A stretch of 64,000 bases of DNA, taken from contig JBBIGR010000018.1 of the NCBI GenBank assembly GCA_037447435.1, positions 19,561-83,560 of the forward strand. Reading direction: 5' to 3'. Made by a program: the position numbers and the translations under genes. The DNA is from Fibrobacteria bacterium (lineage in GTDB: Bacteria; Fibrobacterota; Chitinivibrionia; Chitinivibrionales; FEN-1185). Below are positions 26,006-55,021 of the stretch, one piece after another. Below the pieces are notes generated by a model. The model searched no databases and was not told the origin of the DNA. It worked only from the letters and a program-made list of their open reading frames with translations. How positions within the stretch are numbered: the first letter of the stretch is position 1; the number at the start of each line of letters is the position of its first letter.

Positions 26006-26390
26006 GTACCTGTTTGGAAAAATAACGTTTTTGTTAGGATGGGGCACGCTTCGTCTCTACTTTGTAATTCTACCTTATATTTTGTAAAGATCCAAGATCC
26101 TCAAGATGGTCATAAAATGTCGGCTCTTCCAGGGCAGGAGTTTCCCCACTCATTAGCACACCACGCTAGTTAATCGATTAAATAGAATTAGTTGACTATA
26201 TCTCGTCTTTCAGGTAGAATAAGAAAGCCTGTTTATAATTCTTTATACTATTGGATTGTTGGATTTTAAAGTTGTGAATATGTGATTATGATCACGGTCT
26301 GGATTGTTTAATGGGTGTATAGTTAAGAAGAGTAAGACCAAAAATAAGGGCTATTGTTTGGATTGGCACTATTGCACGTAGGAGCGCTTC

Positions 26391-29300
26391 ATGAAGAATA
26401 TAAAAAACATTTTTATTTTAGCTGCTGGTTTTTTGGCAGTAATGACTTTACATACCAATACTTTTTGTGCGACAATTACATGGATTTCGTCGAGCGGGGG
26501 TAAATGGAACAATACAGCAAATTGGAGCCCGACCGTAATACCTTCCTCGGCAGATACAGCGCTTTTCAGCACGTCTTCCGGCGCCTGCACGCTTGACGTG
26601 TACATGTCAGTTAATTCGATACAGTTTACAAATTCGTATTCCGGTAATTTTTATTTCAATCACAATAAATTAACGATTTCAGGTATGGCGGATTTTCGCA
26701 ATGGATCGGGCCATATAATTTCTGCAGGAAATGATACTTTGGAATTAACTGGCAATATGCCGAAAACGATTTTTCCGACATCCAACCACGATACATTGCC
26801 GAATCTTCTTTTGACTCCTGCAAGCATATCAACAGCTATAGGGGGCAGCAACGATACGCTTTTTGTTTCGTCGTTGCGTTTTGCGACAAACGGAGATTTT
26901 ACCATGACTGCCAACCAAGGAGTATGTGTGAGAGGAGACATTATCCTCAATGCAGGCAATTTATATGCATTACCGGGAAATTTGGATGTTTTGGGAAATG
27001 TTGTAATTCAAGGTGGTACTTTAACTGCGCCTGCATCAACCATGCATGTCTGTGGTTCATGGAGCCACACTACAGGGGCGTTTGTTCACTCTTCAGGCAC
27101 GGTTGTGTTCAATGCTGGTGCAATCGGCGGTGGTACAATTACCGAAAGCGCGCCATTTTCGAACGTGAATTTTAATAGCCCGGGAAATAAGACTTGGACC
27201 GTCACGAGTGCACCAATCAAACTTATTGGTGCTTTGATTATGAATAACGGAACATTAAACCTTGGGACAGGAATGATTGACAGTGCAGCAAGCTTGAATT
27301 GCGGAGGTGGAACACTTGATTTTAATTCATCGACACTGCGTCTTCCAACGCCGTCGATTGATTTTAGTTCCATTGGTAATATTATACCTGGAAACGGCAA
27401 ATTGGAATTAGTGGGAATGTCAAGCATAAATTTTAAGCCAAAACCCAACTTGCTTTTTCCTGAGATAGTGCAGAATTTTGGCGGAACAACAATGCTTAAT
27501 GGTACGCTTTCGGCGAAAGGAATTACTGTAAAGAACGGAACCTTTAGCTTTAATAACACGCATTCCGGGGATAATATCGGGTTTTTAACCGGTACAGGCG
27601 GTACTGTAGATTTTAACAATGACTCAATTAACGTAAGTGACACTGTAAATTTATTTTACGTAAATAGCACAATGAGCGGATTTGGCATATTAAAATTTGT
27701 CAATAACTTACCGGCAAATTACGTTCCACCGCATTTCTGGCCTAATCCGATTCTTATAAAATCGGGCACCGGGACAACCACGGTTAGGCAAAACAATATA
27801 AAAGGACAGAAGCTGAGAATCGAATCGGGTATTTTCTCATTGGGGGCTTTAACGGCAGGCGTTAACGATTCCCTGGATACGCTGGAAACGGCCGGCGGCG
27901 GCATGGATTTTGGGAATTGCACTCTATCGGTCAGGTTTTCGAACGTCGACTTGTCTCCTCTTACGACATTGACTCCGGGAACGGGCGCACTTAAATTTAC
28001 AAGCTCGTCGCTACAGTCGTTTTGGCCGTCAATATCATACGTCAACCCAATTGTCAAGCATTCGGGAACGGGCGCACTTAAATTGATGAACGCGCTTACG
28101 GCAAACGGGTTTGAGCAACCGCAAGGTGCGTATCAGTTTAATTTGAACGGAAATAACGTAACGATTGTTAATAACGGAAACTTCTTCGTCAACAGTTATT
28201 CGGGCCCCAATATGATTTCCGGGCTTGCGGGACGCACCATTTCCGTGGCCGGCAATGTGACCGTTACCGGTCTGCCGCCGAGTACCACGGTCGATATGAG
28301 TGCCGGTTCAACATGGACACTCAACGCAGGAGGACAGGTCCTGTTTGATTGTGTCAATTTTGATCATTGCGATGCGATCGGCAGCCCGGGCGTGGCAACC
28401 AACTCCGCGAACAACGGCGGCAACATTAACTGGACGTTTGTCAAGCAATGGATCTCTGGCGGCACTCACAATTGGGGAGACGCCCCCAACTGGAGCCCGA
28501 CGGGCGTACCGACTGCGACGGATTCCGTAGTGTTGTCGAGCAGTTGGGATTGCATTCTGTCGATGCCAAACGTAACCGTCAAGGCCATTTCGTTCCCCGG
28601 ATACACCGGTATCTTCAGTTTCCTAACGGACACCTTGTGTGTGACAGGCAGGGCCGATTTTGGGGGCGCCGCAAATGTAGCTTCGGGGACCGGCGCACTT
28701 AAGCTTGTAGGGAACGGTCCGCAGGTATTCACTCCGTCATACCAGAGTTTTTTGTGGACAATCGTGAAAGAAGGAACAGGGGTTTGCAGTTTAAGCACCG
28801 CCCTAAAAGCGCATAATCTCTACGTTAAATCAGGTGCTATAAAACTGGCTGGCGGCGGTCCGGCAGATTCTCTCGTCGACGAAACCAATATAAGCGGCGG
28901 AACGCTTGATCTTGGAGGTAAGAGAGTTTTCACAAAGTCACTGATGACTACCGGAGGAACGCTCCTGGCGACAAGCGATACGCTGACCATTGCCGGCTCG
29001 GCAAATTTCACGGGGCTCACTCCCTTTAACCCAACGCAAGGAACCATCGTCATTAAGGCAATGCCGCCGTTTGCCTCATCGGTGACATCCGGGAGCACGA
29101 CGTTCAACAATTTAGTCCTGTGGACCGATGGGGCGGACGGGTATCTTGACACAATCAAAATGATGTCCGGTATCCTCGCGGTCAACAACGATCTCGTTTT
29201 CAGAAGGACTAAAACGGTATCAACTCCGGGAAAGTCTGTGTGGCGATTCGATATCAACAATACGGGTGTCTCAATAACGGGAAATGTCTTTACCGAAGAA

Positions 29301-32300
29301 ACACCTGGAGTAAACCCGATATCATCAAATCCGAGTCTGTTCATGGGTTCCAACAACTGGACGTTTGAGAAATATGCGATATTGCCCATCGGTAATGGGG
29401 ATTCGAAATCGGCGAGTTTGGTTTTTTCCGGCGCTCCCGGAACCGTTCAAAATTTCTTCGCAGGGATAACGAATCCTTTGGATTCTCTTGGAACGGTTAC
29501 TCACGCTTCAAACGATACTCTAAAGCTTTTAAGCCCTTTACCCTGTCAATCGTTTACCCAAACAGCCGGAACATTTGATTTTAATGGATTCAATTTGGCC
29601 GTCACCAATAATTTGAACATTTCAAGCGGCACTTATTCATCCTTGAAAAATTTGGATAGCCGGACCATTACTGTTGGGGGTACCGCCAGTTTTAACGGCC
29701 AACCCGGAAACTTGATTAATTTGAGTCCGCTTTCCTCATGGTACATTTATTTGAATGGCGGTTCGCTCAATGCGTCGTATGCGCAAATTGGCAATGCGTA
29801 CGCATATGGGGCAATGGGTGGAAACGGGTATGCAACAAATAGTAGGAAAACAGCATACACCATGGGATGGAAAATCCCGGGAATGACACTAACCTGGAAC
29901 GGCTCCGTAAATACAAATTTCAGAACAGCAGGTAACTGGTCGCCTGCATATGCTCCCTCGGATAGTGATGATGTCATATTTAATTCCGGTTCAGTAAATT
30001 GCATACTCGATACCAGCATAGGGGTGAATAACATTACTTTCGCACCCGGATATTCTGGGACATTTGATTTTAGAAATTTTACCCTCACCGTTTCCGGTAA
30101 TGCAGACTTCAGTAATGTCGGTGGAATAGGTAATTCGGGAGGAACTTTAAAATTTTATAGCTCAATAAACGGAAAGAAATATTTCATTCCAAGAGCAGGG
30201 ATTCTATTTCCTAATATTTACCAGTCGGGTGTCGGCGGGGGCGGCGATACCGTCGTCGTTATGGCCAATCCTCTTAAAGCAGGCAGATTTTATAAACAGT
30301 ATGGAACCTGGGATTGGGGAAATTTCGGCGCAAAGCATAGCGTACAAAGCCTTATAAACGATATGTCGGGCGAAATTGATTTTGGAAATTGTACTCTGCA
30401 AGTATATGATTCTTTAAAAATTACAAGTACGGTAAAACACAATTTCGGGTCTGCAATAGAATTGTTGAAATCCTCCGGAGATCAAAGAATTGAAGTTTGG
30501 AATATGGATACTTTGCCCGGAATAATCCACAATGCAACGGGAAATATCTTGTTGGGCAACAATCTTCGTTGTCAATCATTTTCCAATAACCTTGGTACGA
30601 TAGCCTCGAACGGGTTTAATATTTCCACGGTAAACGATTGCATCTTCGCGGGTGGCAATTCCCTATTGCAGGATTTATCGGGACGCCGTTTTTACTGCGG
30701 CGGTAACATGACATTTTTGGGAAAATCCAACGATAGCATAGTTGTAAACGCAACAACCGTAAGCTGTACTCTCACGGTTTTGGGAACCCTGCAGGCAAAT
30801 TTTGCGAAAATCGGCAGGTCTATCGTTATTGGCACTAAAGGATATGCGGCAAACTGCATGAATCTGGGTAACGATTCGAATTGGCTGTTTCTTCCGAGGG
30901 GTTTAAAACTATGGAAAGGTGATGGGGCAGATCAAAACTGGTCTACGGTAAGCAATTGGATACCTCCGACTTTGCCCGCCGGTAACGACAGCGTCGTGTT
31001 CAATAATACGACTTCAAAAAACTGTTTCCTCGATACTTCGGCCACCGTTAAAAAATTGACTTTTGCAACAGGGTATTCCGGAATGTTCGGGTTTGGATCG
31101 TCGACGCTCGCGTTGTCGGGAAATGCGGATTTCGGTAATTGCATGAATGTGGATCCCGGAAGCGGCACGCTGTTGTTTTCCGGCAGCGAACCAGCGGTTT
31201 TAACTCCGCCTCCCATGGCTCAGTTACCCTCAATCGTACGGGGAAGCGGTATGGGAACTTTGACAATAAATAAAAATCCTCTGAATGCACAATCAATCAA
31301 CGTTTCTGCCGGGGTTTTCTTTTTCGGCAGCGGCCTGTCTCATTCGGTCGGGTCGATACAGGGACTCGGCGGTTCGACCATTGATTTTGGAACAAATACG
31401 ACTGTCGCGGTAAAAGGAGACGTCAATTTGTCGGGAATGAACATCGTTTCAGACCAAAGCGATACCCTCCAATTTGCAGGGTATCTTGGGCAAGTGTATA
31501 CCGCTCCGTCAATGGCGACAAATTATACCATGGTAATCGAAAAGAACGACACGCTGACCCTTGGATCGCCGAATTTGCAAGTAAATGATTTGGTGTTGTA
31601 TGCCGGAACACTGAAACTCGGGAATTCGCATTCGCACACCGTGAATAATCTCATAGGATACGGCGGTGTACTTGACTTTGGATCATCGACACTGTCGGTA
31701 CGCGGCAATGCGGATTTTTCGGGGCTCCAGGATGTTGTCGCAGGAAGTGGAATATTGTTATTGAACAGCGCTACGGTGAATCAAACCTTAATACCCCAAT
31801 TTCCCGATACGTTGCCGTTTGTACGCCACCCGGGACCAATGGCGCTTGAAATTACCAATAATCCGCTTACCTGCACTTCTTTCCTGCAAAACGGAGGACA
31901 GCTTTTTATAAACGGATTCGATATCACGACGGTTTCGGATTTTACAATTTCAAATGCAACAGTCACGACGATGTCGGGACTTGCAAACCGAACCCTTTCC
32001 GTGGGCGGAAATGCAAATTTAAGCGGAACTCCGGGAAGTCCGATCATTCTTTTTCCTGAATCGCCTTGGAAGCTTTCTGTGCAAAAAGCAACTACCATTG
32101 TCGATGCAGTGATAGGAAAATGCGATGCGTCGGCATGTGGTTTCTGGCCGGTCCTTGCTTCATGCATCGATTCAGGATATAATCAGAAATTTGACTTTGT
32201 TAAGCCGCAGGCCGTAATCATACGACCGGTCTCCGGGAGTTTGCGTAACAGTCTTCCGTACATTACGGGTACCGCAACGGATTCGGTTTCGGGAATTGCA

Positions 32301-35300
32301 ACGGTTCAAGTATCGCTGATGCGTTCGGATAATCAGTTCTACAACGGTAATTCATGGGGCGCTCTGTCTTGGCTTAATGCGTCGGGAACAACCGCTTGGT
32401 CGTATCCGTTACCCTCCGGTTGTTTGGCAGACGGCGTATATACGATCCAGGCACGAGCGATCGACAGTGCATCGAATATGATGGCGCCGGTCACGGCATC
32501 TTTTACCATAAAAACCACCACGCCGCCGAATCCTGCCATTGCTATTGTCAATAATACGGGATTTACAAAAGATTCCGTTGTGACGCTGGCATTATCGGTT
32601 ACCGGCGCAGACAGCATGCAAATTTCCTTGAATACCCTGGTGCCTGGACCATGGGAACCGTATGCACCACAAAAAACAGGTTTTGTCATCAGTGCGCAAG
32701 GGGAAGGCAAGAAAAAGATTTCAGCCGTTTATAAGGATATTGCAGGAAACTCGACCGTTGCAGTATCGGATAGCATCGTATATGATGTCTCGCCGCCAAC
32801 AAACGCAAAGATATCAATTGTCGATAATAACGGTTTTACGGGAAGCCCCACACCGTTGATCATGGTGTCTGTACAAGGTGCCGACAGTATGCAATTTGCC
32901 GTGGGTAGCAATGCGTTTACCACATGGGAACCCTATGCAACCAATAAGACCTCTTTACTCATTAACGGCGGCGGAGACGGTCAGAAAATTGTGTTTGCCC
33001 GGTTTAAAGATAAGGCAGGCAATTTCAGTGTCATCGTATCGGATACGACACAATACGATTCTCGTCTTCCTGCTGTCACTTCTGTTACCGTTCTTGACAG
33101 TAATGGGTTTATTAATTATAAAAAGCCAAAAATACAAATTGCCGCAGTCAATGCCGACAGCATGAGAATTGCATTGACACAAGATACTGCGGGTGCGTTA
33201 TGGAAAAAAATTGCCGCAATAGACAGCATCGACATTTCACAGGGAACGCAAGGAGCAAAAACAATATGGGTGCAGGTAAAGACCGTCGCCGAAGCTAAGT
33301 CCACATGGTTGTCGGATTCGACGGTTTACGATACTACGCCGCCACCGGCACCGGCAAACCTACTCATGACATTTGTCGATATGTCGACGGTTAGGGTTTC
33401 GTGGGCCGCCTTGCCTGCAGGCCCGTTCGACAGTATCATGGTTTGCACGGCACTTGATGGTCCGATACTTTCGAGAGTTGCCGGGGCATGGGGAAGTGAA
33501 ATATCGGCGCACAACACTGTCGACACCCTGGCACAAGTTCCGGTAAATGGAGCGACCATGTCGGTGGGCGTTGCGGTCAAAAACGTCTTCGGATCATGGT
33601 CTTCAATTACGTCGCGTTCGATGGTACTCAATGATACCGTTCCCCCTATAAATAACACGCATATCGCTCTTGCCAGTGTCGGTGATACGGCGATATCCAT
33701 CGGGGTAAAACCAGATTCGATGCAAAAAGATGTCAAGACGATTCAAATTGGCGTGTATAATCCGACTGGGGCGGCAGTGCTTGCGATTAAATCGTTTACT
33801 TTTAAGGACACAACTATATTGGTCAATAATACCAAAGTAGTTGGGACGTGGAAAGTCTCTTCGGCATGTGCCGATGCCGCAGGAAATGTATCCGCATTTC
33901 GAACGGATACGGTATTGGTTGCTGAAATCAAACCGTTGACACCGGTTACCACAATTGTCAAAAGCCAAACAAAATTTGCGGGGTCGGCGGCGCATTATTC
34001 GTTAGGAACGGCATCGATAAGAGATTCTTTAGTCACCTATACCGTTGTTGTCAAATCACTGAACGACGCGGTCATTGTAAAAAAAATAACCCAAACAGGA
34101 AATCAAGTCGACTTGTTTCCTCTTTCAGACGGCACGTATGAAGTTTCCGCGTTCGCCACTTCGATTATCGGTAAAGACAGCATCGGAATAAAAGACACGT
34201 TTACCATTACCGGTGCGACAACACATTCGTTTCCTAAAACTATCGATACCACCGGCGTAACATGGCAAATGGTTTCAGTCCCGACTAAAACGATAACGGT
34301 ATCGCCGTCGTCGGCACTTGGCTCTTTGTATCATTGGGATGAATCGCGGCAGGAACGGGATATTTACGGCTATTATCATCAGGTATCCGAGATTGGCCAA
34401 TTGCAACAAGGGTGCGGCTATTGGCGAAAAGCAACCGATACGGCAACTATAAATGTTCCGCGCGCCAATGTTCTGGACTCGATCGTCGACATAACTATCT
34501 ACAAAGGAACCTACGGCTGGAACCAGATCGCATCGCCCTTTTCTTATCCTGTCGCGTGGCCGGCGCAGGGAATGCTGTGGAAATGGAATGAGTCGACAAA
34601 GGATTTTGAAGAATCATCCAACGTTCTTGAACCATGGCAAGGATATTGGGTAATGGCGGATTCGTCCATGGTTGTTCATTTGGCAAATAAGCCCGCCTTT
34701 TCCGCAGGTACGTTAGCAAAGCGAACGGTCGCCAAATATGTGGACAACAAAAACTGGCAGGTCAGAATGTCGTATAACGGGAATTGGAATTGTGATGCCC
34801 AGAACGCTTTCGGATTCAACCAATTAGCCTCGGACGGATACGATGTGAATGATGCGGCAAAGCCGCCGCGGATGTCGGATTACCGGTATGTGTTTTTCTC
34901 TCATCCCGAATGGAAGCGCGGCTATAGCGAGTTTGCCAGAGACCTTAGGAAAACCCTGAAGCCGGTCGAAACGTATACTATTGGAATAACGCCGGGAAAC
35001 GGAAAATGCGGCGGAGAAATCAACTTTGACGGATTAGAAAACATTTCGAAGGACATACAGGTTTTTATTGCCGATGAGAAGGACATCGTGCAAATTGAAG
35101 CCGGCAAACCTTATTCCCTTCCTAAAGCAGACTCTGTTTTATATAAAACCATGTTTGTCACAACGGATAAGAATTTTTTAAAGAATTTTCCGCGTTCGTT
35201 CAATTTCGGCGTGCCGTATCCAAACCCTACTCGGCGTTTTGCTAACATTAAATATACGCTGCCGTATCATTTGGGGAAAAACGGGGTGCTTCCGAAGGAA

Positions 35301-35504
35301 CAATATATGGTAAACATTGCATTGTATGATTTGTTGGGCAGACAGGTTCGGCAACTTGTGTATTCGAACAAAGAACCGGGAAATTATTTAACCTGGTGGG
35401 ATGGAAAAAACAATGCCGGCAATTTCGTTGCGACCGGAATGTATTTCTGCCGGCTGACCGCAGGAGAATTTTCGTCGATAAAAAGATTGACCGTTGTACG
35501 ATAA
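26391..35504 (+). CDS. Giant secreted repeat protein (3037 aa): beta-helix-like repeats, Ig-like repeats, C-terminal FlgD-Ig/T9SS-like domain
   Basis: Signal peptide; four W..NWSP..P...D.V.F modules; Gly/Thr/Asn-rich repeats; D.AGN Ig-like repeats; C-terminus PYPNP..LYDLLGRQVRQL..WDGKNNAG..GMYFCRL. Confidence 0.85.
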   Translation: MKNIKNIFILAAGFLAVMTLHTNTFCATITWISSSGGKWNNTANWSPTVIPSSADTALFSTSSGACTLDVYMSVNSIQFTNSYSGNFYFNHNKLTISGMADFRNGSGHIISAGNDTLELTGNMPKTIFPTSNHDTLPNLLLTPASISTAIGGSNDTLFVSSLRFATNGDFTMTANQGVCVRGDIILNAGNLYALPGNLDVLGNVVIQGGTLTAPASTMHVCGSWSHTTGAFVHSSGTVVFNAGAIGGGTITESAPFSNVNFNSPGNKTWTVTSAPIKLIGALIMNNGTLNLGTGMIDSAASLNCGGGTLDFNSSTLRLPTPSIDFSSIGNIIPGNGKLELVGMSSINFKPKPNLLFPEIVQNFGGTTMLNGTLSAKGITVKNGTFSFNNTHSGDNIGFLTGTGGTVDFNNDSINVSDTVNLFYVNSTMSGFGILKFVNNLPANYVPPHFWPNPILIKSGTGTTTVRQNNIKGQKLRIESGIFSLGALTAGVNDSLDTLETAGGGMDFGNCTLSVRFSNVDLSPLTTLTPGTGALKFTSSSLQSFWPSISYVNPIVKHSGTGALKLMNALTANGFEQPQGAYQFNLNGNNVTIVNNGNFFVNSYSGPNMISGLAGRTISVAGNVTVTGLPPSTTVDMSAGSTWTLNAGGQVLFDCVNFDHCDAIGSPGVATNSANNGGNINWTFVKQWISGGTHNWGDAPNWSPTGVPTATDSVVLSSSWDCILSMPNVTVKAISFPGYTGIFSFLTDTLCVTGRADFGGAANVASGTGALKLVGNGPQVFTPSYQSFLWTIVKEGTGVCSLSTALKAHNLYVKSGAIKLAGGGPADSLVDETNISGGTLDLGGKRVFTKSLMTTGGTLLATSDTLTIAGSANFTGLTPFNPTQGTIVIKAMPPFASSVTSGSTTFNNLVLWTDGADGYLDTIKMMSGILAVNNDLVFRRTKTVSTPGKSVWRFDINNTGVSITGNVFTEETPGVNPISSNPSLFMGSNNWTFEKYAILPIGNGDSKSASLVFSGAPGTVQNFFAGITNPLDSLGTVTHASNDTLKLLSPLPCQSFTQTAGTFDFNGFNLAVTNNLNISSGTYSSLKNLDSRTITVGGTASFNGQPGNLINLSPLSSWYIYLNGGSLNASYAQIGNAYAYGAMGGNGYATNSRKTAYTMGWKIPGMTLTWNGSVNTNFRTAGNWSPAYAPSDSDDVIFNSGSVNCILDTSIGVNNITFAPGYSGTFDFRNFTLTVSGNADFSNVGGIGNSGGTLKFYSSINGKKYFIPRAGILFPNIYQSGVGGGGDTVVVMANPLKAGRFYKQYGTWDWGNFGAKHSVQSLINDMSGEIDFGNCTLQVYDSLKITSTVKHNFGSAIELLKSSGDQRIEVWNMDTLPGIIHNATGNILLGNNLRCQSFSNNLGTIASNGFNISTVNDCIFAGGNSLLQDLSGRRFYCGGNMTFLGKSNDSIVVNATTVSCTLTVLGTLQANFAKIGRSIVIGTKGYAANCMNLGNDSNWLFLPRGLKLWKGDGADQNWSTVSNWIPPTLPAGNDSVVFNNTTSKNCFLDTSATVKKLTFATGYSGMFGFGSSTLALSGNADFGNCMNVDPGSGTLLFSGSEPAVLTPPPMAQLPSIVRGSGMGTLTINKNPLNAQSINVSAGVFFFGSGLSHSVGSIQGLGGSTIDFGTNTTVAVKGDVNLSGMNIVSDQSDTLQFAGYLGQVYTAPSMATNYTMVIEKNDTLTLGSPNLQVNDLVLYAGTLKLGNSHSHTVNNLIGYGGVLDFGSSTLSVRGNADFSGLQDVVAGSGILLLNSATVNQTLIPQFPDTLPFVRHPGPMALEITNNPLTCTSFLQNGGQLFINGFDITTVSDFTISNATVTTMSGLANRTLSVGGNANLSGTPGSPIILFPESPWKLSVQKATTIVDAVIGKCDASACGFWPVLASCIDSGYNQKFDFVKPQAVIIRPVSGSLRNSLPYITGTATDSVSGIATVQVSLMRSDNQFYNGNSWGALSWLNASGTTAWSYPLPSGCLADGVYTIQARAIDSASNMMAPVTASFTIKTTTPPNPAIAIVNNTGFTKDSVVTLALSVTGADSMQISLNTLVPGPWEPYAPQKTGFVISAQGEGKKKISAVYKDIAGNSTVAVSDSIVYDVSPPTNAKISIVDNNGFTGSPTPLIMVSVQGADSMQFAVGSNAFTTWEPYATNKTSLLINGGGDGQKIVFARFKDKAGNFSVIVSDTTQYDSRLPAVTSVTVLDSNGFINYKKPKIQIAAVNADSMRIALTQDTAGALWKKIAAIDSIDISQGTQGAKTIWVQVKTVAEAKSTWLSDSTVYDTTPPPAPANLLMTFVDMSTVRVSWAALPAGPFDSIMVCTALDGPILSRVAGAWGSEISAHNTVDTLAQVPVNGATMSVGVAVKNVFGSWSSITSRSMVLNDTVPPINNTHIALASVGDTAISIGVKPDSMQKDVKTIQIGVYNPTGAAVLAIKSFTFKDTTILVNNTKVVGTWKVSSACADAAGNVSAFRTDTVLVAEIKPLTPVTTIVKSQTKFAGSAAHYSLGTASIRDSLVTYTVVVKSLNDAVIVKKITQTGNQVDLFPLSDGTYEVSAFATSIIGKDSIGIKDTFTITGATTHSFPKTIDTTGVTWQMVSVPTKTITVSPSSALGSLYHWDESRQERDIYGYYHQVSEIGQLQQGCGYWRKATDTATINVPRANVLDSIVDITIYKGTYGWNQIASPFSYPVAWPAQGMLWKWNESTKDFEESSNVLEPWQGYWVMADSSMVVHLANKPAFSAGTLAKRTVAKYVDNKNWQVRMSYNGNWNCDAQNAFGFNQLASDGYDVNDAAKPPRMSDYRYVFFSHPEWKRGYSEFARDLRKTLKPVETYTIGITPGNGKCGGEINFDGLENISKDIQVFIADEKDIVQIEAGKPYSLPKADSVLYKTMFVTTDKNFLKNFPRSFNFGVPYPNPTRRFANIKYTLPYHLGKNGVLPKEQYMVNIALYDLLGRQVRQLVYSNKEPGNYLTWWDGKNNAGNFVATGMYFCRLTAGEFSSIKRLTVVR

Positions 35505-46747: not shown

Positions 46748-49519
46748 TTATCTGCCGAGAAGAATTGGTTGTGGCTTTAGCCAGTTTACCGTAATTGGGC
46801 CTGTTCCAAGATCGCCAAACGCGCCTATTCCGCATCCCCAAAGACTACCGTCTTCTTTGAGCATTAAGGTATGCGCTTGTCCTACGGCGATGCTTTGCAC
46901 GCCAGAATCCACCTTAACCGGTGTATAATAAATATTAGTGTCTCCTGTACCAAGTTCGCCGCCATCATTTATTCCAAACCCCCAAACCGTACTGTCGGCT
47001 TTTAGTATAAAACTATAGTCGCAGCCGGCCGATACCTCTTTTACACCAGCCAGTACCTGTGTCGGAGTTAATTTAGTTACATCGGTATTATCTCCCAGTT
47101 CTCCATTGCTATTTAAGCCAGAAGCCCACAGAGAGCCATTTGTCTGGACAATAAGGCTGTGGTCCCACCCACCGGCAATACCTTTGACGTCAGTCATAAT
47201 TTGAATCGGGATATACCGGTCATTGATTGTTCCATCACCGACCTGGCCGGTCGCATTATATCCGAATGTCCATAAAGTTCCGTCGGTTTTCACTACGAGG
47301 TTATGCCAGGATTGTCCTTTTGCCAATGTTTTTACATTCGACATTATCAGTTCCGGCAATAAATGGCTGACAGTCGTATTGTCACCAAGTTCACCTATTT
47401 CATTATCGCCACAACCCCAAAGGGTGCCGTCTGTTTTCAACATAAGACTGAATTCGCCCCCTGCTCTCATGGATTGCACGTTGGACATTACTTGGACCGG
47501 AGTGTAACGATCGGTTGTTGTGCCGTCGCCTAACTGGCCATATAAATTTTCCCCGCAAGCCCATAATGTACCATCTATCTTTAAAAAAAGTGAATGTGAA
47601 ATTCCTGAAGACATTGCCTTAACTCCGGACATAATATGAACCGGATTTGTCCGGTTTTGTGTTGTGCCGTCGCCGAGTTGGCCGTATTCATTTGATCCCA
47701 AAGCCCAAAGGGCATTATCGGAAGTCAGAAAGAAAGTGGATACGTCACCAGCGGCTATGCTGGAAATTGAAGTGAAATGGATTGTATTGATATTAAATAA
47801 ATCGATGCTTTTATTACCAATAAATTTTATATACAACGAATGCTTACCAATTACTTTAGGGAAATTACAGAGGACATCTGCCCATGTCTGCCATCCGCCG
47901 GTTTGGGGAACAGCGCATGAGGCCAAAAGCGGGGAATTCGCGCTGTCGAGCCGAAGCTCTATTGAGCCGCCGTTACTGCCGGTTGCAATCCGGGCGCAAA
48001 ACACTGTTGCGCCGCCGATCCCGAAATTAACATTGTAGAAAACGAGGGCGTCCTGGTCTTGAATTCCGCTAACGTCAAGCCCTCCTTCAGAACAGGGCTC
48101 CGTGACAATTCCCGACATGGTACTAAATGATGCTGCGGGAATAGTGGCGAAAGCATCGAAACTGTCGTTGCAAACGGCAATCTTCGCTGTTCCGATCATT
48201 GTTTGCGCCGAAGCGTTAATGGTGAAGGGGCCACCAATGGTATTAAATGCGGTAAATAGACCATTGGTATCAATGGTGCCACCACTGCTTGCTGACCAAA
48301 CGAAATTCGGCTGCTGCAAAAGCGAATTTCCGAACTGGTCGGAATCTGCAATAGCAACGAATTGTTGTTGCGCATTTATGAGAATTCGCTGATAATCGGG
48401 TTTTATTGCTATCCCTCTTGCCCTTTGCTGTACTTGTAAGATGAGAGTATCGGCAATGCTGAGTCCTCCTTTATCTGTGATAACGACATGAAGGGGATAG
48501 GTTCCTGCTTTTGCAAAAGAGATTGTGGTTGTCTTGGCCGCGTTGGTTGCATTTATGCCGAATTGAACAGGCGTAACCGGTGTGCCGAGTACATCCCATG
48601 TATAGGTGAGATTCGATTCGCCGGCATCATCCGTACCAAGTACGCTAATGACAGTGGAAGTGGTTACAACAGGGTTTGATGTTGCAAAAGCCGGTTTTGC
48701 AATTTTCGGGGGAGTATTAACTGTGGTAACATTGACGGTAACGCATGAGCTAATAGTTTTTTTTGGAGGTTCTATTCCCCGAAGTGGTCTTTCATAGTTG
48801 AATCCGCGATCTGAAACTTTGACAACGAAAACATAGGTTCCTGCAATCGGAATTGTAGCTGATATTGTTTTTGAGACATTTGATCCGTTTTTTCCAAAAG
48901 TAACCGGGCCGGGGCCAGATATTTTTTTCCAGGCATATTTTAAATTCTGTTCGCCGCCGTCATCCGCAGCACTTACACTGAGCGTAGTTGTCGCTCCGGC
49001 ATTAATAGTGGCAGGCATTGCTATCGGTGTTGAAATGGTTGGAGCAGCGTTGAAGTAAATGCAATCGAAACGAGCAAATTCACCTGGAGGTGAATAAGTT
49101 CCTTGAAATGAAATAGTCCATCCTTTTTTAATAGTAACTCCTAAAAGTGTCCGGGATACTAGGTTGCAAACCGCCGGGACAGTGCTGCAAGACCCCTGTC
49201 GACTTGATTTCCAGAAGTCAACTCTGGCTCCATTTACAAAGACGGAAAACTCGCTGTTCCCGTCTTTTTCATCGAAATACCAGACTTTAATGTCGTATGA
49301 GCCATCGGGACCGCTGAACGCCCACTGGGCAGTGCCCGTGGCGTCTTTGTCTACTTTAATACATTTTCCGTCGGAAGCGAAAACCGAATTTTCCTTTGAG
49401 TAATTTGTGAGAGCCATTGTTTCGGCTTGAGTAAAAATTTGCGATCTTGCATCAAAAATTAAGAATAGCAGCAAGATAATGAGCCAGTTTTGATTTTTAT
49501 TGAATAGTATCATATTCAT
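46748..49519 (-). CDS. Secreted multidomain protein: CBM-like, two PKD/Ig-like, CBM6 and RCC1-like beta-propeller repeats
   Basis: Signal peptide; DDGGE/DDAGE..LxYxW repeats; CBM6-like EPCSEGG..SIELRLDS..TGGWQTW; about six LW..G.N..GQLGDGT repeats. Confidence 0.85.
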   Translation of the reverse strand: MNMILFNKNQNWLIILLLFLIFDARSQIFTQAETMALTNYSKENSVFASDGKCIKVDKDATGTAQWAFSGPDGSYDIKVWYFDEKDGNSEFSVFVNGARVDFWKSSRQGSCSTVPAVCNLVSRTLLGVTIKKGWTISFQGTYSPPGEFARFDCIYFNAAPTISTPIAMPATINAGATTTLSVSAADDGGEQNLKYAWKKISGPGPVTFGKNGSNVSKTISATIPIAGTYVFVVKVSDRGFNYERPLRGIEPPKKTISSCVTVNVTTVNTPPKIAKPAFATSNPVVTTSTVISVLGTDDAGESNLTYTWDVLGTPVTPVQFGINATNAAKTTTISFAKAGTYPLHVVITDKGGLSIADTLILQVQQRARGIAIKPDYQRILINAQQQFVAIADSDQFGNSLLQQPNFVWSASSGGTIDTNGLFTAFNTIGGPFTINASAQTMIGTAKIAVCNDSFDAFATIPAASFSTMSGIVTEPCSEGGLDVSGIQDQDALVFYNVNFGIGGATVFCARIATGSNGGSIELRLDSANSPLLASCAVPQTGGWQTWADVLCNFPKVIGKHSLYIKFIGNKSIDLFNINTIHFTSISSIAAGDVSTFFLTSDNALWALGSNEYGQLGDGTTQNRTNPVHIMSGVKAMSSGISHSLFLKIDGTLWACGENLYGQLGDGTTTDRYTPVQVMSNVQSMRAGGEFSLMLKTDGTLWGCGDNEIGELGDNTTVSHLLPELIMSNVKTLAKGQSWHNLVVKTDGTLWTFGYNATGQVGDGTINDRYIPIQIMTDVKGIAGGWDHSLIVQTNGSLWASGLNSNGELGDNTDVTKLTPTQVLAGVKEVSAGCDYSFILKADSTVWGFGINDGGELGTGDTNIYYTPVKVDSGVQSIAVGQAHTLMLKEDGSLWGCGIGAFGDLGTGPITVNWLKPQPILLGR

Positions 49520-49653: not shown

Positions 49654-49680
49654 TAAAGAAAATCCAGATTCTGCCGATGA
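49654..49680 (+). promoter_or_regulatory. Sigma-28 (FliA) promoter, distal
   Basis: TAAA-N15-GCCGATGA upstream of flagellin. Confidence 0.8.
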
Positions 49681-49737: not shown

Positions 49738-49764
49738 TGAAGTGCTTGGTAGGTTTGCCGATAA
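49738..49764 (+). promoter_or_regulatory. Sigma-28 (FliA) promoter, proximal
   Basis: TGAA-N15-GCCGATAA. Confidence 0.75.
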
Positions 49765-49792: not shown

Positions 49793-49846
49793 GCAGGAAC
49801 AAGGATGAATAAACCTGCAATGCCTCAATCCCAACAAGGACGTTGG
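49793..49846 (+). promoter_or_regulatory. CsrA/RsmA-type binding hairpins in the flagellin leader
   Basis: GCAGG..AAGGATG..CCTGC, and a CCAAC-AAGGAC-GTTGG hairpin with the SD-like AAGGA in its loop. Confidence 0.65.
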
Positions 49847-49848
49847 TT

Positions 49849-51042
49849 ATGAGAATCAATCACAATATTTCGGCAATGATTACACAAAGCTCGCTGTATC
49901 AAGTGGGCCAATCGATGCAGAAGTCATTGCAGAAACTGTCAACAGGACTCCGTATAAACTCCGCAGCAGATGATGCTGCAGGACTTGGCGTGTCCGAAAA
50001 TCTCAGAACTCAAGTTACCGGATTGCAGCAGGCAATGAGAAATACTCAAGACGCTATTTCAGTTTTAAATATTGCAGATGGCGCATTGAACGAACAAACC
50101 AGTATTCTCCAACGTATGCGTGAACTAACGGTGCAAGCAAAAAACGATACGTATACTAGTACCGAACGAGCTTACATGGGTCAAGAATTCGACTCGCTTT
50201 TTCATGAACTCGATAGAATTGCTGCATCGACCAATTATAACAAAATGCAGATTTTTGCAACCCCATTTATCAGTTCGAACGGTGGCAACACGGTTTATCC
50301 AGCCGACAATTTGAACGGGTCTCCGCATGAGTTGAGTGATGAACGTACTCTCTTTACTGATCCGAATAACAATGTGTTCGGAGCAAATGATTATGCCAGT
50401 TCCAACCATTTCAATTTTCTGGTTGGAGCAAATTATAATGCACAGGATGCTGCGGCTGCGAATAATGCAAGCGCTTCATGGAATCCCGGTGCCGGTGATA
50501 TGATAACCATGCAATTCGGGCAAATGGATACCAATGCATTATTCACACCTGCACCCGATTCGGCCGGACCAGCTACTGGCATACTCGAAACGCTCACTGC
50601 TGCGGGCAATAATCCGTTTGGCTGGGATACTACACAATCACCCGACCAAGACATTTCTATGGTAATTGCATCTCACACAGCATCTATTCAAGATAAGCTA
50701 AACTTGATTCTGAATTTGATTGACGGTGACCCAGTGGATCCAGAAATTGAAGCGGGTTTTTTTCAATTCGGCGCTGGTCCGGGAACCAATATTACGGGTT
50801 TGAGACGTGTAAACCAGATGCGGGCGAGCATCGGGGCCATGACAAACAGGCTTGAGCACGCAGTTAATAACGATCAAAACCAAATCACTAATCAACAATC
50901 CGCCGAATCTCAGATTCGAGATGTTGATTTTGCCAAAGAAACTGCAACATTCACGAGGAATCAGATTTTAACCCAATCGGCAACGGCAATGTTGTCGCAA
51001 GCTAATTCTGTTCCGCAAAGCGTGCTTCAGTTACTGAAATAA
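49849..51042 (+). CDS. fliC: Flagellin
   Basis: MRINHNISA..KLSTGLRINSAADDAAGL N-terminus; RASIGAMTNRLE..SQIRDVDFAKE..QSVLQLLK C-terminus. Confidence 0.97.
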   Translation: MRINHNISAMITQSSLYQVGQSMQKSLQKLSTGLRINSAADDAAGLGVSENLRTQVTGLQQAMRNTQDAISVLNIADGALNEQTSILQRMRELTVQAKNDTYTSTERAYMGQEFDSLFHELDRIAASTNYNKMQIFATPFISSNGGNTVYPADNLNGSPHELSDERTLFTDPNNNVFGANDYASSNHFNFLVGANYNAQDAAAANNASASWNPGAGDMITMQFGQMDTNALFTPAPDSAGPATGILETLTAAGNNPFGWDTTQSPDQDISMVIASHTASIQDKLNLILNLIDGDPVDPEIEAGFFQFGAGPGTNITGLRRVNQMRASIGAMTNRLEHAVNNDQNQITNQQSAESQIRDVDFAKETATFTRNQILTQSATAMLSQANSVPQSVLQLLK

Positions 51043-51072: not shown

Positions 51073-51142
51073 ATTTCCATCCTTCCAGAGTGTGGGTTCT
51101 TTCAAACTTTTATTATCATATGCGATCAACTATATTTTTCGA

Positions 51143-52000
51143 ATGATTTTCGATATTGCTTCGTTTAAAATTAAAGTTCTAGGCAAGCCTCGCAAGATTT
51201 TTGATTTTCCCGAATCGTTTTACAAAAAATTCCATCAATATCTATGCTCTAATTCAAGAAGCCCCTGCATTGATTTTACACTTGTTGTTATTCCCTTCGA
51301 ATCATTTTCGCTGCCGTCAAAAAGCCTCGAGAAACGCCAGCAGCACCTTTACAATGAAAATAAGGAAAAATTCATTATAAAATCTCCCGGCGCAATAGCA
51401 AGTGTCAATATGGCTTCAAAAACTATTTCCCTGGGCTTTAAAGGGAAAGTCACGAATAGAAGAAAAAATCTGATACTCATGGGGTTTGTTCGGCTTGCCG
51501 TTTCAATATGCGCAGTGCTCAAAGGCGGGCTGCCATTTCATTCCTCGGTTATTGCCTTTAACAAATATGGAATTGCTTTTTCCGGTCCTTCGGGTGCCGG
51601 CAAAACGACTATAGCGAAACTTCTTGCTGCTCCGGGGCAATTGTTAAACGATGAATTCAATGTCATCCTTCCTTTGGGAAAAAATGGATATCGAATTCAT
51701 TCGACACCTTTTACTCAATTTAAAACGTTAAAAAGTTGCAATAAAAAAAATCTTATTCTCCATACTATATTTTTTCTTGAAAAAAGCATGGCGAATTCAA
51801 TAGAAAACCTGGCTTTTAAAAACAAGTATATATCACTGTTGGGACAAACATATATTTTTCCCCTGTCGGACTTTTTTGGGAAAAAAATACTTGACAATGC
51901 TGAAAAAATATGCGGCAACGTTTCTTGCAAACGGCTGCATTTTAAAAACGATGAAACTGTCCGGTCCTTCATTTATGACTTTGCAAAGGACTTACTGTGA
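51143..52000 (+). CDS. HprK-related P-loop kinase (ScmC-like)
   Basis: LPFHSS, AFSGPSGAGKTT, LLNDE, HSTPF; start uncertain (GTG 51092 or ATG 51143). Confidence 0.8.
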   Translation: MIFDIASFKIKVLGKPRKIFDFPESFYKKFHQYLCSNSRSPCIDFTLVVIPFESFSLPSKSLEKRQQHLYNENKEKFIIKSPGAIASVNMASKTISLGFKGKVTNRRKNLILMGFVRLAVSICAVLKGGLPFHSSVIAFNKYGIAFSGPSGAGKTTIAKLLAAPGQLLNDEFNVILPLGKNGYRIHSTPFTQFKTLKSCNKKNLILHTIFFLEKSMANSIENLAFKNKYISLLGQTYIFPLSDFFGKKILDNAEKICGNVSCKRLHFKNDETVRSFIYDFAKDLL

Positions 52001-52263
52001 CCTACGAGATTACCTCCGATTTGTCGATAAAGGAAATTGCAGAAGAGCTGTTTGTTTACAACAGGAAAAACTCGACCATATATTCGTTCAACGGAAGCGG
52101 TGTTTTTATTTGGAAATTGGTTGCCCAGCATTTGCCGTTCGATGAAATCAGCAAGCGCTTATGCGGTGAATTCGATGTCACTGTTTCTGAGGCAGAGGCG
52201 GACGTTGCAGACTTTGTGAAAAACCTTCTTGAAAACGGTCTTATCACATTACTCCAGAAATAA
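51997..52263 (+). CDS. PqqD-family RiPP recognition element (RRE)
   Basis: 88 aa; IYSFNGSGVFIWKL..EISKRLCGEFDV..AEADVADFVKNLLENGLI; GTGA overlap with the kinase gene. Confidence 0.92.
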   Translation: MTYEITSDLSIKEIAEELFVYNRKNSTIYSFNGSGVFIWKLVAQHLPFDEISKRLCGEFDVTVSEAEADVADFVKNLLENGLITLLQK

Positions 52264-52267
52264 CGAT

Positions 52268-53320
52268 ATGGCTTCAGAAACAATAGCATTAAAGTTGGAT
52301 CGTATCTCGCGCAAGGGATATCCTACAAACGCAAGCATTGAAGTGACCGCCCGATGTAATGCGCATTGCGGTTATTGCTATTTGCAGGATTGTTCGTTTG
52401 AAGATCCGTCGATAGAGCAGTTATGCCTAGCTGTAAGAAAGCTTTCGGACAGCGGCATGTTTCATTTGCATGTCACTGGAGGAGAACCGTTTTTACGACC
52501 GGACATTCTTACACTCCTTTCTTTTGCATTCGACCTTGGCATTTTTCATTGCACTCTTTTTACGAATGGAACCCTTTTAAACGACGAACATCGAAATTTT
52601 ATTGTGCGGAACAGAGATTTTTTTCGTCATATACAAATGTCGATTTTTTCCCATAATCCTTCGGTAAACGACGCTTATTTAGGAGTTCCAGGCGCTTTTA
52701 ACGAGATACTTAAAAATGCCCTTTTCTTGAAAAATAACGGAATCAGGATATCTCTCGCCATGAGCATTTTAGATTTTAACGTTGACACATTTGAGGAATC
52801 CCGAAGGTTTTTCAGCGATAGGGGATTAACGCTACTTATTGCCAATTTTAAAACAATCGCCGGCCCCGTAATCGAAAAACATGTTGCAACCTCAACCACG
52901 AATTCTTTTTTCAAACGTTATTTTCAAAACTTGGACGCTGATATTTTGGGCAGATTAAAAATACAGATGAAAGAAGCATTGAAAATCCCTCCGCAAAATG
53001 ATGTTGAGCTTTGTCACGGCCGCTGGAACACTGTCTATATTAATACCAAAGGTGATATCGCACCGTGCATTTCCTTCAGAAACTTCAAGCTCGGAAATAT
53101 CTACGAAGAAAGATCGGTTCATGACATTTTACTAGCGGCTCCGGACTATCATTCTATTTGCGCTTTACATAAAAACGATATGAAAAAATGCGCCGCTTGC
53201 AAATTTTTCAATTTTTGCACTATTTGTCTTGGCTCGATTCATACTGAAAAAAAATCATTTCATGATGTCGATGAACAAATGTGCAATTTTGCTCATGCGC
53301 TTTTTGATATTCTTGATTAA
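52268..53320 (+). CDS. Radical SAM / SPASM-domain peptide maturase
   Basis: CNAHCGYC, TGGEPFLRPD, FTNGTL; SPASM-like LCHG..GDIAPC..LGNI..CAACKFFNFCTIC..MC. Confidence 0.93.
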   Translation: MASETIALKLDRISRKGYPTNASIEVTARCNAHCGYCYLQDCSFEDPSIEQLCLAVRKLSDSGMFHLHVTGGEPFLRPDILTLLSFAFDLGIFHCTLFTNGTLLNDEHRNFIVRNRDFFRHIQMSIFSHNPSVNDAYLGVPGAFNEILKNALFLKNNGIRISLAMSILDFNVDTFEESRRFFSDRGLTLLIANFKTIAGPVIEKHVATSTTNSFFKRYFQNLDADILGRLKIQMKEALKIPPQNDVELCHGRWNTVYINTKGDIAPCISFRNFKLGNIYEERSVHDILLAAPDYHSICALHKNDMKKCAACKFFNFCTICLGSIHTEKKSFHDVDEQMCNFAHALFDILD

Positions 53321-53326
53321 TCTTTT

Positions 53327-53770
53327 ATGAAATCTGAGGTGGTACGCTCTTTTTTCTTCGAAGGCCAAAGCAGGTTGTGTACTGTCTATGGAAATTCCAT
53401 GGAACCGTTTTTGTCCTTCGGAGAACAGGTTACGATCGTTCCTTGGGGCGGTAAGCTTAAGAAGGGGCATTGTTATGCTTTTATTACCGGGAGCAAACTG
53501 ACCATTCATCGGTTTATTGCTATGACGGGTAAAAAGCAAGCGCTATTTGCAGGGGACAACTGTCTGTTTTTAGATATTGTTGCAATATCGGATGTTATTG
53601 GAGAATATTCTTCTTGCCAAAGCCGCGGATTTCTAATTATAATTAACCTGATAAATTGTTTGTTTTTTGTTTTTATGATGCGTTCAGGTAAAACCTTAAG
53701 GTTTCATAAAACACGAAGGCGGATTATTAGGTTTATAATAAGATTTGCAAGAGAGAGGCGATTGAAATGA
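53327..53770 (+). CDS. S24/S26-family serine peptidase
   Basis: VYGNSMEPFL, TIHRF and AGDN motifs; hydrophobic C-terminal segment. Confidence 0.85.
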   Translation: MKSEVVRSFFFEGQSRLCTVYGNSMEPFLSFGEQVTIVPWGGKLKKGHCYAFITGSKLTIHRFIAMTGKKQALFAGDNCLFLDIVAISDVIGEYSSCQSRGFLIIINLINCLFFVFMMRSGKTLRFHKTRRRIIRFIIRFARERRLK

Positions 53771-53937
53771 AAAAAAAATATGAAAAGCCTGTTTTAATAG
53801 TTGAAGTCATGGCCCTAGACATGCTTCAAATGTCTTGCACGCATCACGGCGGTTTGCCGACAAAATTATCCGGTGTCAACGGAGTCTCGTGCCAATGTTG
53901 CGGCACCGGGCTTTACTATTCCGGCTCAACCGGATAG
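53767..53937 (+). CDS. Putative RiPP precursor peptide, 56 aa (absent from the ORF track)
   Basis: MKKKYEKPVLIVEVMALDMLQMSCTHHGGLPTKLSGVNGVSCQCCGTGLYYSGSTG*. ATGA overlap with the peptidase stop, GAGAGG upstream, YxxPxL leader motif, four Cys. Confidence 0.85.
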   Translation: MKKKYEKPVLIVEVMALDMLQMSCTHHGGLPTKLSGVNGVSCQCCGTGLYYSGSTG

Positions 53938-53951
53938 GTTAATTTTCTTTG

Positions 53952-54737
53952 TTACCTATGCGAACGCCGTTTTTTTCGGATAAGCTTTAGTGGAATGTTT
54001 GCAAAAGGTAATTCCAAAGCCAGCCGCCGCAACCAAACGGGCATTGATTCGTAGATGTTTCTGCTCGCCGTAAAAGCCAAAAATCGCGCATAATATGATG
54101 GCTTTTGTAAAGGAACATTCTCGGCTCTGACTTTTGAATAATGCAATAAAAACATATTAAAAAACTGCCGTATGCCCGTATGCGTTGCCAAATTCCAAAA
54201 CCGATTCCATGAAAACCCTTCCTGACTACTGAGAACTTCTATTTCTTGCCAAACCGTTGTTCGTATTTCGAACGGTATATGCACTAATTGGTGGCATAAA
54301 AAAATAATCAGACTGTCTTCGGGGCTTGGAAGGTGTAAAAACCTTTTTTGCACAACCGATCTTGAAAATAACGCCTCTGTCGGAAGGTGGAACCGTTCTG
54401 GATAATTAAGAAGAGTGTGGATTTCGACGAACGCGGTCGCTTCGAGGCAAGGCAGGAAGAAAGAAAATTCGAACGGCCAGTAATTCGGTTTTGTCCGCAC
54501 TCCCGTTACATTTTTAAAATACTCGATGACCTGCGGCATATCGGATTCTAAAACAAGGATGTCGATGTCGCACATTTTCCTGTCTGAAAAATGTCCTGCG
54601 CAGCCGGAAACGATGAGGTAGGCGCCTTTGATGGGCATGTAGTTGATTTGCAAATTGACAAAATGGTCGTGCAAAAGGCGCAGGGCTTCTGTAAAAAAAA
54701 ATTGCCGAAAGACCCATTCTTTATTCGGTTGCGCCAT
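53952..54737 (-). CDS. Nucleotidyltransferase family protein (NTP_transf_5-like)
   Basis: YMPIKGAYL, RKMCDIDILV, FVEIH, PSPED..LCH; convergent on the precursor gene with a 14-nt gap. Confidence 0.85.
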   Translation of the reverse strand: MAQPNKEWVFRQFFFTEALRLLHDHFVNLQINYMPIKGAYLIVSGCAGHFSDRKMCDIDILVLESDMPQVIEYFKNVTGVRTKPNYWPFEFSFFLPCLEATAFVEIHTLLNYPERFHLPTEALFSRSVVQKRFLHLPSPEDSLIIFLCHQLVHIPFEIRTTVWQEIEVLSSQEGFSWNRFWNLATHTGIRQFFNMFLLHYSKVRAENVPLQKPSYYARFLAFTASRNIYESMPVWLRRLALELPFANIPLKLIRKKRRSHR

Positions 54738-55021
54738 TAGGGCTTTCTCGAAGTTCCGGTTTCACCGCGAATGATCCGATAGGTTTGTGAAACCGATATT
54801 CTGAATTTCTTGGCGAGCTTTGTTCCCGAAACACCGGAATGATAGAGATGAAGGATTTCGACGTTTCTGGTTTGGTACTTATCGGGAACAGGGATTATGC
54901 CGTATTTTGAACGGAGTTGAAAGACTGCTTGACGAGTTATACCGAACAGCTTTCCGATCGCGTCATCGGTTTTATATTTTGTTTGTAATTTAACAAGCTG
55001 TTGCTTACTGATACGTGCCAT
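54737..55021 (-). CDS. Small protein with two HTH-like motifs
   Basis: DAIGKLFGITRQAVFQLR and GTKLAKKFRISVSQTYRII; 1-nt overlap with the NTase gene. Confidence 0.75.
   Translation of the reverse strand: MARISKQQLVKLQTKYKTDDAIGKLFGITRQAVFQLRSKYGIIPVPDKYQTRNVEILHLYHSGVSGTKLAKKFRISVSQTYRIIRGETGTSRKP

Follow-up and report, generated by a model that had tools for sequence, protein, structure and literature searches.

We have studied a six-gene cassette and the flagellin gene that precedes it in a window of 64,000 nucleotides from a Fibrobacteria bacterium (GenBank assembly GCA_037447435.1, contig JBBIGR010000018.1, positions 19,561 to 83,560; the window denotes this whole stretch, and all coordinates refer to it). 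The cassette very probably makes a peptide that is made on the ribosome and modified after translation (RiPP), and its distinctive feature is a fixed link to one enlarged flagellin. The original prediction, a candidate RiPP cluster read from the sequence, had the six genes right but missed this flagellin, which at 49849-51042 lies outside the coordinates proposed for the cluster. As an enzyme set the cassette varies a known scheme; what surprises is its coupling to a flagellin. The analysis suggests that the peptide is made for the flagellum rather than as a free antibiotic. A functional tie of the module to the enlarged flagellin is likely, and our preferred reading, to which we assign a probability of roughly 45%, has the flagellin carry and display the matured peptide. 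The genes concerned are listed here with the evidence for each.

49849..51042, plus strand: enlarged flagellin, 397 aa, with its central region at 50257-50817 (Flagellin_N/C matches, family alignment, co-occurrence)
51143..52000, plus strand: predicted HprK/PEPCK-like P-loop kinase, ScmC-related, 285 aa (conserved motifs, weak family matches)
51997..52263, plus strand: stand-alone PqqD-type RiPP recognition element (RRE), 88 aa (PF05402, E 1e-15)
52268..53320, plus strand: radical S-adenosylmethionine (rSAM)-SPASM maturase, thioether-synthase-like, 350 aa (CxxxCxxC and seven SPASM Cys)
53327..53770, plus strand: S24/S26 leader peptidase, archaeal signal peptidase I (SpI)-like, 147 aa (Ser/His/Asp triad)
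53767..53937, plus strand: precursor peptide, 56 aa, with a YxxP leader of about 22 aa and a hypervariable core (conserved open reading frame after the S24 gene)
53952..54737, minus strand: convergent NTP_transf_5 nucleotidyltransferase (NTase), PsmN/LppN-like, 261 aa (PF14907, E 2.8e-17)

The coupling was surveyed in all 81 genomes of the order, identified through named homologues as Chitinivibrionales (Fibrobacterota), with members of the rSAM clade accepted at E<1e-90 and three matches at 1e-48 to 1e-51 set aside as other clades. The module is carried by 29 of these genomes. The profile of the flagellin insert matches 27 genomes and the rSAM clade likewise 27, with both present in 25. Among the discordant genomes, the start of a cassette is visible at a contig end in G060 and G032, and a flagellin C-terminus sits beside the kinase in G007 and G076, the piece in G076 being too short to type. 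Flagellins as such occur in 72 genomes, 43 of which have neither the insert flagellin nor the rSAM clade, and none of the nine genomes devoid of flagellin has the module. No enlarged flagellin without the cassette was found in the 81 genomes, the contig-end cases showing a fragment of the partner. Of the 29 module genomes, 26 have the flagellin immediately upstream of the kinase gene, and the two are likewise neighbours in all four metagenome contigs with sequence on that side of the kinase. Gene order in relatives is flagellin, kinase, RRE, rSAM, S24 protein and precursor, faced by the convergent NTase. In G006 and G012 flagellin and cassette have come apart and both are retained; G079 is undeterminable in this respect. 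In G290, from another order, the kinase, RRE, rSAM, S24 and precursor genes are followed by the flagellin, which has its own sigma-28 site.

Close relatives further show that the pair changes hands as a unit. RpoB of G056 and G078 is 97% identical, but identity falls to 35% for the insert, 26% for the rSAM and 15% for the kinase, so that flagellin and enzymes must have been replaced together; for G078 and G079 the values are 93% for RpoB, 61% for the insert and 41% for the rSAM. Partial Mantel tests after removal of RpoB distance, which are crude when applied to trees, comprised 15-22 genomes, those without RpoB or a full gene being dropped. As evidenced by these tests, the insert co-varies most strongly with the kinase (0.46, reached in 0/2000 permutations, n=19), and also with the rSAM (0.40, 4/2000, n=20) and the S24 protein (0.40, 2/2000), but not with the NTase (0.0), although the latter is equally adjacent. 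Flagellin and enzymes have been exchanged jointly between close relatives, and their pairing outlasts rearrangement in another order. Genes, motifs and this genomic coupling are matters of observation.

A rather unlikely alternative is that the product is a free modified peptide, a signal or antagonist co-regulated with motility, and that the flagellin is a neighbour travelling along in the same block. It draws on the existence of related cassettes without a flagellin across the phylum and beyond. Scans with the rSAM gave 156 further loci, 20 of them with at least two partner genes, and a flagellin was present in only one of the 20 (L026, from the same clade); a further 12 kinase cassettes retrieved from the phylum all lack a flagellin neighbour, so the wider cassette family does not need one. 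Hypervariable cores, moreover, are typical of diffusible RiPPs, and terminator-like hairpins separate flagellin and kinase in a number of loci. This alternative is, however, hard to reconcile with the lack of an exporter in most loci, with the enlarged flagellin never being found without the cassette, with the persistence of the link after separation (G006, G012) and reordering (G290), and with the cassette of G290 not lying downstream of the flagellin promoter.

Several other arrangements were seen. A related kinase occurs in 92 of 151 genomes of another family of the phylum, f13, and three of its loci (L324-L326, in G163, G204 and G158) hold a kinase-S24-RRE-ABC transporter cassette without rSAM; this is close to the LPP gene set described below, outside Bacillota, and the leader profile found no precursor in the three loci. 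A second module within the order (L199, L201, L203, L204, L205, L207) places kinase and S24 genes inside polysaccharide loci, in several cases with an NTP_transf_5 and an HD-domain gene, with RRE, rSAM and visible precursor absent nearby. Locus L257 (G013:C442) has an open reading frame of 710 aa that fuses kinase-, S24- and NTase-like parts and adjoins an RRE, in a genome without a flagellin match. Viral loci with distant rSAM matches contained a partner gene in 0 of 59 cases, and the kinase had no plasmid match.

The source genome encodes seven other flagellins of 281-305 aa, an eighth match being FlgL-like. The enlarged flagellin owes its extra length to four hypervariable loops that are set on the D1 scaffold; in the family alignment these loops have a mean pairwise identity of 17-30%, against 53-73% for the scaffold. 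The insert profile found 21 proteins among 1.84 billion representatives and matches 28 of 296 genomes of the phylum, and the insert is therefore lineage-specific. Eight of the 21 library matches were inspected: five are flagellins or flagellin-like, one (P0137) is unexplained, and P0136 and P0138 were rejected as repetitive false positives. Note that P0134 and P0137 are metagenomic proteins in which the insert is present, the flagellin termini are degenerate or missing, and a short basic C-terminal stretch is found. The predicted model of the insert has a mean pLDDT of 73.5 and gave no structural match above Z 2.5 among 48,161 chains, a result that does not by itself show a new fold; an Atlas search with the insert returned flagellin fragments only, and the model of the complete protein matches flagellins. 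In the source genome Flagellin_N has 11 matches, in four other genomes of its genus none. Upstream of the enlarged flagellin, three signals were located.

49654..49680, plus strand: sigma-28-like promoter, TAAA-N15-GCCGATGA (motif match)
49738-49764, plus strand: second, weaker sigma-28-like site (motif match)
49830..49846, plus strand: GGA-loop hairpin covering the flagellin ribosome-binding site (pattern search)

The first of these fits what we take to be the sigma-28 consensus, and such a motif precedes 26 of 30 enlarged flagellins, with 0.12 expected from shuffles. The GGA hairpin, which resembles a CsrA site, likewise covers the ribosome-binding site in 26 of 30 and is found, among the flagellins of the source genome, only upstream of the enlarged one. 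A scan of the window region for sigma-70 promoters and terminators remained at chance level. The hairpin is one of the points that speak for an intracellular regulator, in which the Cys-rich matured peptide, having bound flagellin or metal inside the cytoplasm, would control export or translation of the flagellin like a partner switch; the lack of an exporter or signal peptide, and an N-terminal Cys with a CxC/CxxC pair that could bind metal, are also in line with it. We nevertheless consider it very unlikely, as the variable loops are on the outer side of the flagellin and not on the conserved regulatory surface of D0/D1, and such variability would be needless for a regulator pair.

Turning to the cassette itself, the six genes were found at the coordinates claimed for them, with intact catalytic motifs, and their tight order was borne out by the junctions. 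Kinase and RRE genes share a GTGA overlap, RRE and rSAM are separated by 4 nt and rSAM and S24 by 6 nt, S24 and precursor genes share an ATGA overlap, and the 3' end of the NTase gene, on the opposite strand, is 14 nt from the precursor stop. Between flagellin and kinase lie 100 nt. Earlier start codons, GTG at 51092 in the kinase gene and TTG in those of rSAM and flagellin, were discarded because the homologues begin at later ATG codons. Hidden Markov model searches, proposed as a check, gave matches above the Pfam cut-offs for PqqD, Radical_SAM, SPASM, Peptidase_S24 and NTP_transf_5. The predicted absence of a lasso cyclase, a B2 protease and an exporter also held: neither a macrolactam synthase C nor a B2 protease is found among the window genes between argC and the downstream histidine kinase, as judged by Pfam, and no MsbA-like exporter stands beside the module genes in the window. 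The cassette is present once, a search of the source genome yielding neither a second cassette nor further precursors.

A conserved small peptide, on which the proposal of a RiPP cluster hinged, was found as a short open reading frame after the S24 gene in 35 loci. The Tyr and Pro of its YxxP motif are invariant in all 31 precursors first analysed. Counted from the Tyr, position 16 is in most of these occupied by Leu, Ala or Met, and 20 of them have Ala at position 18, a pattern that resembles a signal peptidase site. The cores of the 35 precursors are hypervariable, 21-58 aa long, with a hydroxyl-rich tail and at least two Cys in every case; a Cys falls within the first four core residues in 31 and is usually followed by a later pair spaced CxC to CxxxxC. 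In the window peptide the core Cys are residues 24, 42, 44 and 45; its full-length monoisotopic mass is 5948.86 Da, and a cut after Met22 would leave an unmodified core of 3330.45 Da. Synonymous changes exceed non-synonymous ones in the leader codons of four out of five close pairs. The precursor belongs to no Pfam or NCBIfam family, and one of 34 precursors matches StsA, weakly. A C-terminal Ser is present in 13 of 35 precursors (in the first 31, 11 against 3.3 expected), and Ser, Thr or Tyr occurs within the last four residues in 28 of the first 31; an obligatory terminal Ser was rejected in view of this count and of the window peptide, which ends in S-T-G. From this conservation, the precursor is more than a chance reading frame.

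The CxxxCxxC motif and the seven SPASM Cys of the rSAM are invariant in 27 of 27 proteins, and the seven align one-to-one with those of CteB, an enzyme in which the first auxiliary cluster keeps a site open towards the substrate (PMC8326336). Together with the Cys-rich cores this supports the proposed RiPP logic with a cross-link installed by the rSAM enzyme. For a comparison of active sites we used the six active-site-proximal positions of PMC10288494, in which the clade is called polyfunctional. The window enzyme reads Y-T-F-S-I-S and agrees with SkfB in four of the six residues, with SuiB in two, and with CteB and with PqqE in one each, a profile that favours thioethers from sulfur to the alpha-carbon as the predicted product. 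Its NCBIfam scores remain far below the cut-offs, with AlbA on top (81/850 bits), followed by PapB (59/340) and StsB (52/625).

In the S24 protein, S24, H61 and D77 are invariant in 25 of 25 homologues and correspond to S29/H68/D93 of LppS; a match to TIGR02228 is below cut-off. The Ser/His/Asp residues of LppS were shown experimentally to be needed for RRE-dependent cleavage of the leader (PMC13381572), which lends support to the suggested leader removal by the S24/S26 protein. The HprK-like assignment of the kinase fared less evenly: no Pfam match exceeds the cut-off and the best NCBIfam match, ScmC, reaches 41 bits against 125, but the motifs are conserved, with H133, S150, G153, K154, T156 and P189 invariant and D170 nearly so in 25 homologues, of which five match PEPCK_ATP and one Hpr_kinase_C. 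Motifs and weak family matches thus point to a putative kinase. In the NTase, D57-x-D59 is invariant across homologues; the gene is present in 26 of the 29 module genomes, and two genomes have it without the module. That catalytic residues are invariant at an overall identity of 15-60%, and the leader is under purifying selection, makes a decaying or non-functional relic hardly credible, even though frames are broken in a small number of metagenome-assembled genomes (G029, G032, G290).

With both LppK (PMC13381572) and PsmK (PMC6993621), a Ser receives one or more phosphates, and the addition of a hexose to a peptide phosphate or pyrophosphate requires PsmN (PMC6993621). A family 2 glycosyltransferase (GT2) is found beside the NTase in four loci and beside the kinase in one, with none in the window locus, and sulfotransferase genes lie on the NTase side in some loci. 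Family f2 (L181, L182, L184) has insertions between precursor and NTase, namely a sulfotransferase gene, an ABC-2 exporter pair and another NTase, about 600 aa long, whose C-terminus is DUF4915-like. The cassette might be a flagellin-modification island, with the peptide as carrier on which kinase and NTase build an activated phospho-sugar or phospho-amino acid, this group alone being passed on to the flagellin, or with enzymes acting on the flagellin directly. Its position right behind the flagellin, the activity of PsmN, the GT2 genes adjoining the NTase and the strong co-variation of kinase and insert would fit. The flagellin-modification locus of Clostridioides difficile type A is said to lie just downstream of the flagellin gene, and its enzymes reportedly belong to families other than those of the module. 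It provides a precedent in combining a kinase with a phospho-amino-acid transfer enzyme (PMC4441256), and the fixed position beside a flagellin expected of such an island is found for the module in 26/29 genomes and 4/4 metagenome contigs; it differs, however, in that a single amino acid and a glycan are transferred there, whereas a ribosomal peptide gene is present here. We regard a modification island as distinctly unlikely, as conservation would be expected of a carrier, which should have no use for cross-links or for removal of a leader, and most loci have no glycosyltransferase beside the module.

The exact enzyme set had been thought uncharacterised, and this holds in part, since RRE, SpI-like peptidase, HprK-like kinase and NTP transferase have been described as the pathway to linear polyphosphorylated peptides (LPP; LppA/B/K/S/D/N; Popov et al. 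2026, PMC13381572). The module shares with it these discrete proteins, including the same Ser/His/Asp triad in the leader peptidase, and a YxxP leader. It differs by the rSAM-SPASM enzyme as a fixed part and by a Cys-patterned core, the LPP product being linear, while the MsbA-like exporter of LPP is missing from the module. Of the LPP leader YxxPxVLxHQxIxFETxxS, the module precursors keep YxxP, with HQ and FET absent from 31 precursors; the position of the phosphorylated core Ser3 is mostly Cys, Ala or Gly, although the window peptide has Ser23 there. LPP belongs to Bacillota and is tied to capsule genes, the module to Fibrobacterota and flagellin, and the main text of the LPP paper mentions neither radical SAM nor flagella.

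The predicted likeness to phospho(glyco) lasso peptides of the paeninodin/pseudomycoidin type (PsmK, PsmN; PMC6993621) extends to the kinase, the NTP_transf_5-type tailoring and the PqqD-like RRE, but not to the macrolactam synthase, the B2 protease or a conserved terminal Ser. With SynChlorMet (TIGR04248-04251), the other suggested relative, the module has in common an ScmC-like kinase, a PqqD protein and an rSAM-SPASM enzyme; its scores for ScmC (41/125 bits), ScmD (33/100) and ScmE (75/400) are nevertheless below cut-off, SynChlorMet has two rSAMs instead of one, and precursor, S24 protease and flagellin are features of the module. Sactipeptide and ranthipeptide maturases (SkfB, AlbA, StsB; CteB) are similar in the seven-Cys SPASM domain (CteB), in the Cys-rich core and, for SkfB, in four of six active-site-proximal residues, but the module rSAM scores far under every family cut-off, and a stand-alone RRE, kinase, SpI protease and NTase set the module apart. 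Judged by its sequences, the module is not a member of the LPP, lasso or SynChlorMet systems and rather resembles an LPP-like pathway with a sactisynthase-like enzyme added. A published description of this enzyme set or of a flagellin-linked RiPP was not found in the open-access literature, subscription journals being mostly not covered.

From these comparisons we infer the chemistry of the pathway, and from the genomic coupling the association of peptide and flagellin: a cross-linked, phospho-tailored peptide dedicated to this flagellin. Sigma-28 would turn on the enlarged flagellin late in flagellar assembly, and the enzymes would be expressed by read-through from it, at a lower level. The RRE, by analogy to LppB, would bind the YxxP leader, and the rSAM-SPASM enzyme would join core Cys sulfurs to backbone carbons, most likely as up to four thioethers to alpha-carbons. 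The kinase would phosphorylate Ser, Thr or Tyr, with the hydroxyl-rich tail as the probable place; the S24 protease would cut off the leader with the aid of the RRE, probably after Met22 (L-x-A rule of the family) or Leu20 (LPP register); and the NTase, by analogy to PsmN, would cap the phosphate with a sugar or nucleotide. The mature peptide would finally be bound or attached to the four variable outer loops of the flagellin and leave the cell together with it via the flagellar channel. Display on the flagellin would account for the missing exporter, the matched variability of cores and loops, and the joint exchange, and would give each lineage a different flagellar surface. A more specific form of this reading, which we hold to be unlikely, joins the cross-linked peptide covalently to the flagellin; the bond would be either an rSAM thioether or a phosphodiester or sugar-phosphate for which kinase and NTase are responsible.

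A number of observations weigh against display on the flagellin. Contact of peptide and flagellin is deduced from genomic coupling, and physical linkage by itself also gives co-loss and co-transfer. The survey includes kin that are not independent, and its profiles were built partly from these same genomes. The partial correlation of the whole flagellin with the rSAM is weak (0.21, 138/2000), and that of NTase and rSAM is -0.03, the NTase tree departing from that of the rSAM; an NTase was not found in G017 and G023 (94-95% complete) and G006, the cassette being at a contig end in all three. In 13 of 30 loci flagellin and kinase are separated by terminator-like hairpins, doubtful in the window, which imply enzymes far scarcer than the flagellin. 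A bulky cross-linked peptide may not fit the flagellar export channel, and ABC-2 type exporters in four related loci indicate that export need not be flagellar. No conservation of a phospho-acceptor was seen in the 35 precursors. Finally, the flagellin frame is interrupted in two genomes, by one in-frame stop in G290 and by a split over two frames in G029. The TGA in G290 (L252:947-2047) sits in a variable loop and may be a nonsense change, an error of assembly or a read-through codon.

In the surroundings of the module, one further gene adjoins the NTase.

54737..55021, minus strand: small helix-turn-helix (HTH) protein, overlapping the NTase start (HTH_23, Pfam)

It is often near the module but probably not a core part. 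The protein belongs to a 94-aa double-HTH family with four copies in the source genome, three paralogues being elsewhere (C2, C39, C45), and a copy is near the module in several loci. Upstream of the flagellin, many loci (among them L181:9518-10009, L190, L193, L198) have a divergent cytidylyltransferase-like gene followed by one for a large protein, which mark a site that the module has in common from an ancestor; the neighbours in the window are instead arginine genes and a gene divergent from the flagellin for a 923-aa CBM6/PKD/RCC1-repeat protein (46748-49519). The window also holds an open frame of 3040 codons (26382-35504) whose product is probably secreted.

The biological role of RiPPs made with a kinase and an NTP transferase, paeninodins and LPPs, is stated as unknown in PMC13381572, where LppN was inactive in the heterologous host and a missing partner was suspected. 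The module ties one branch of this logic to one protein that can be purified, the flagellin, and the coupling thereby points to a candidate partner and opens the question to testing. Chitinispirillum alkaliphilum, a cultured and flagellated type species (PMC4814513), has a precursor of the family on record, which brings a direct test within reach. Should the peptide decorate the filament, RiPPs would take on a structural function and flagella would vary their surface in a new way. If it is joined covalently, a RiPP would serve as hypervariable post-translational decoration of a surface filament, and the wider cassette family may represent a general way to attach peptides to cell-surface structures.

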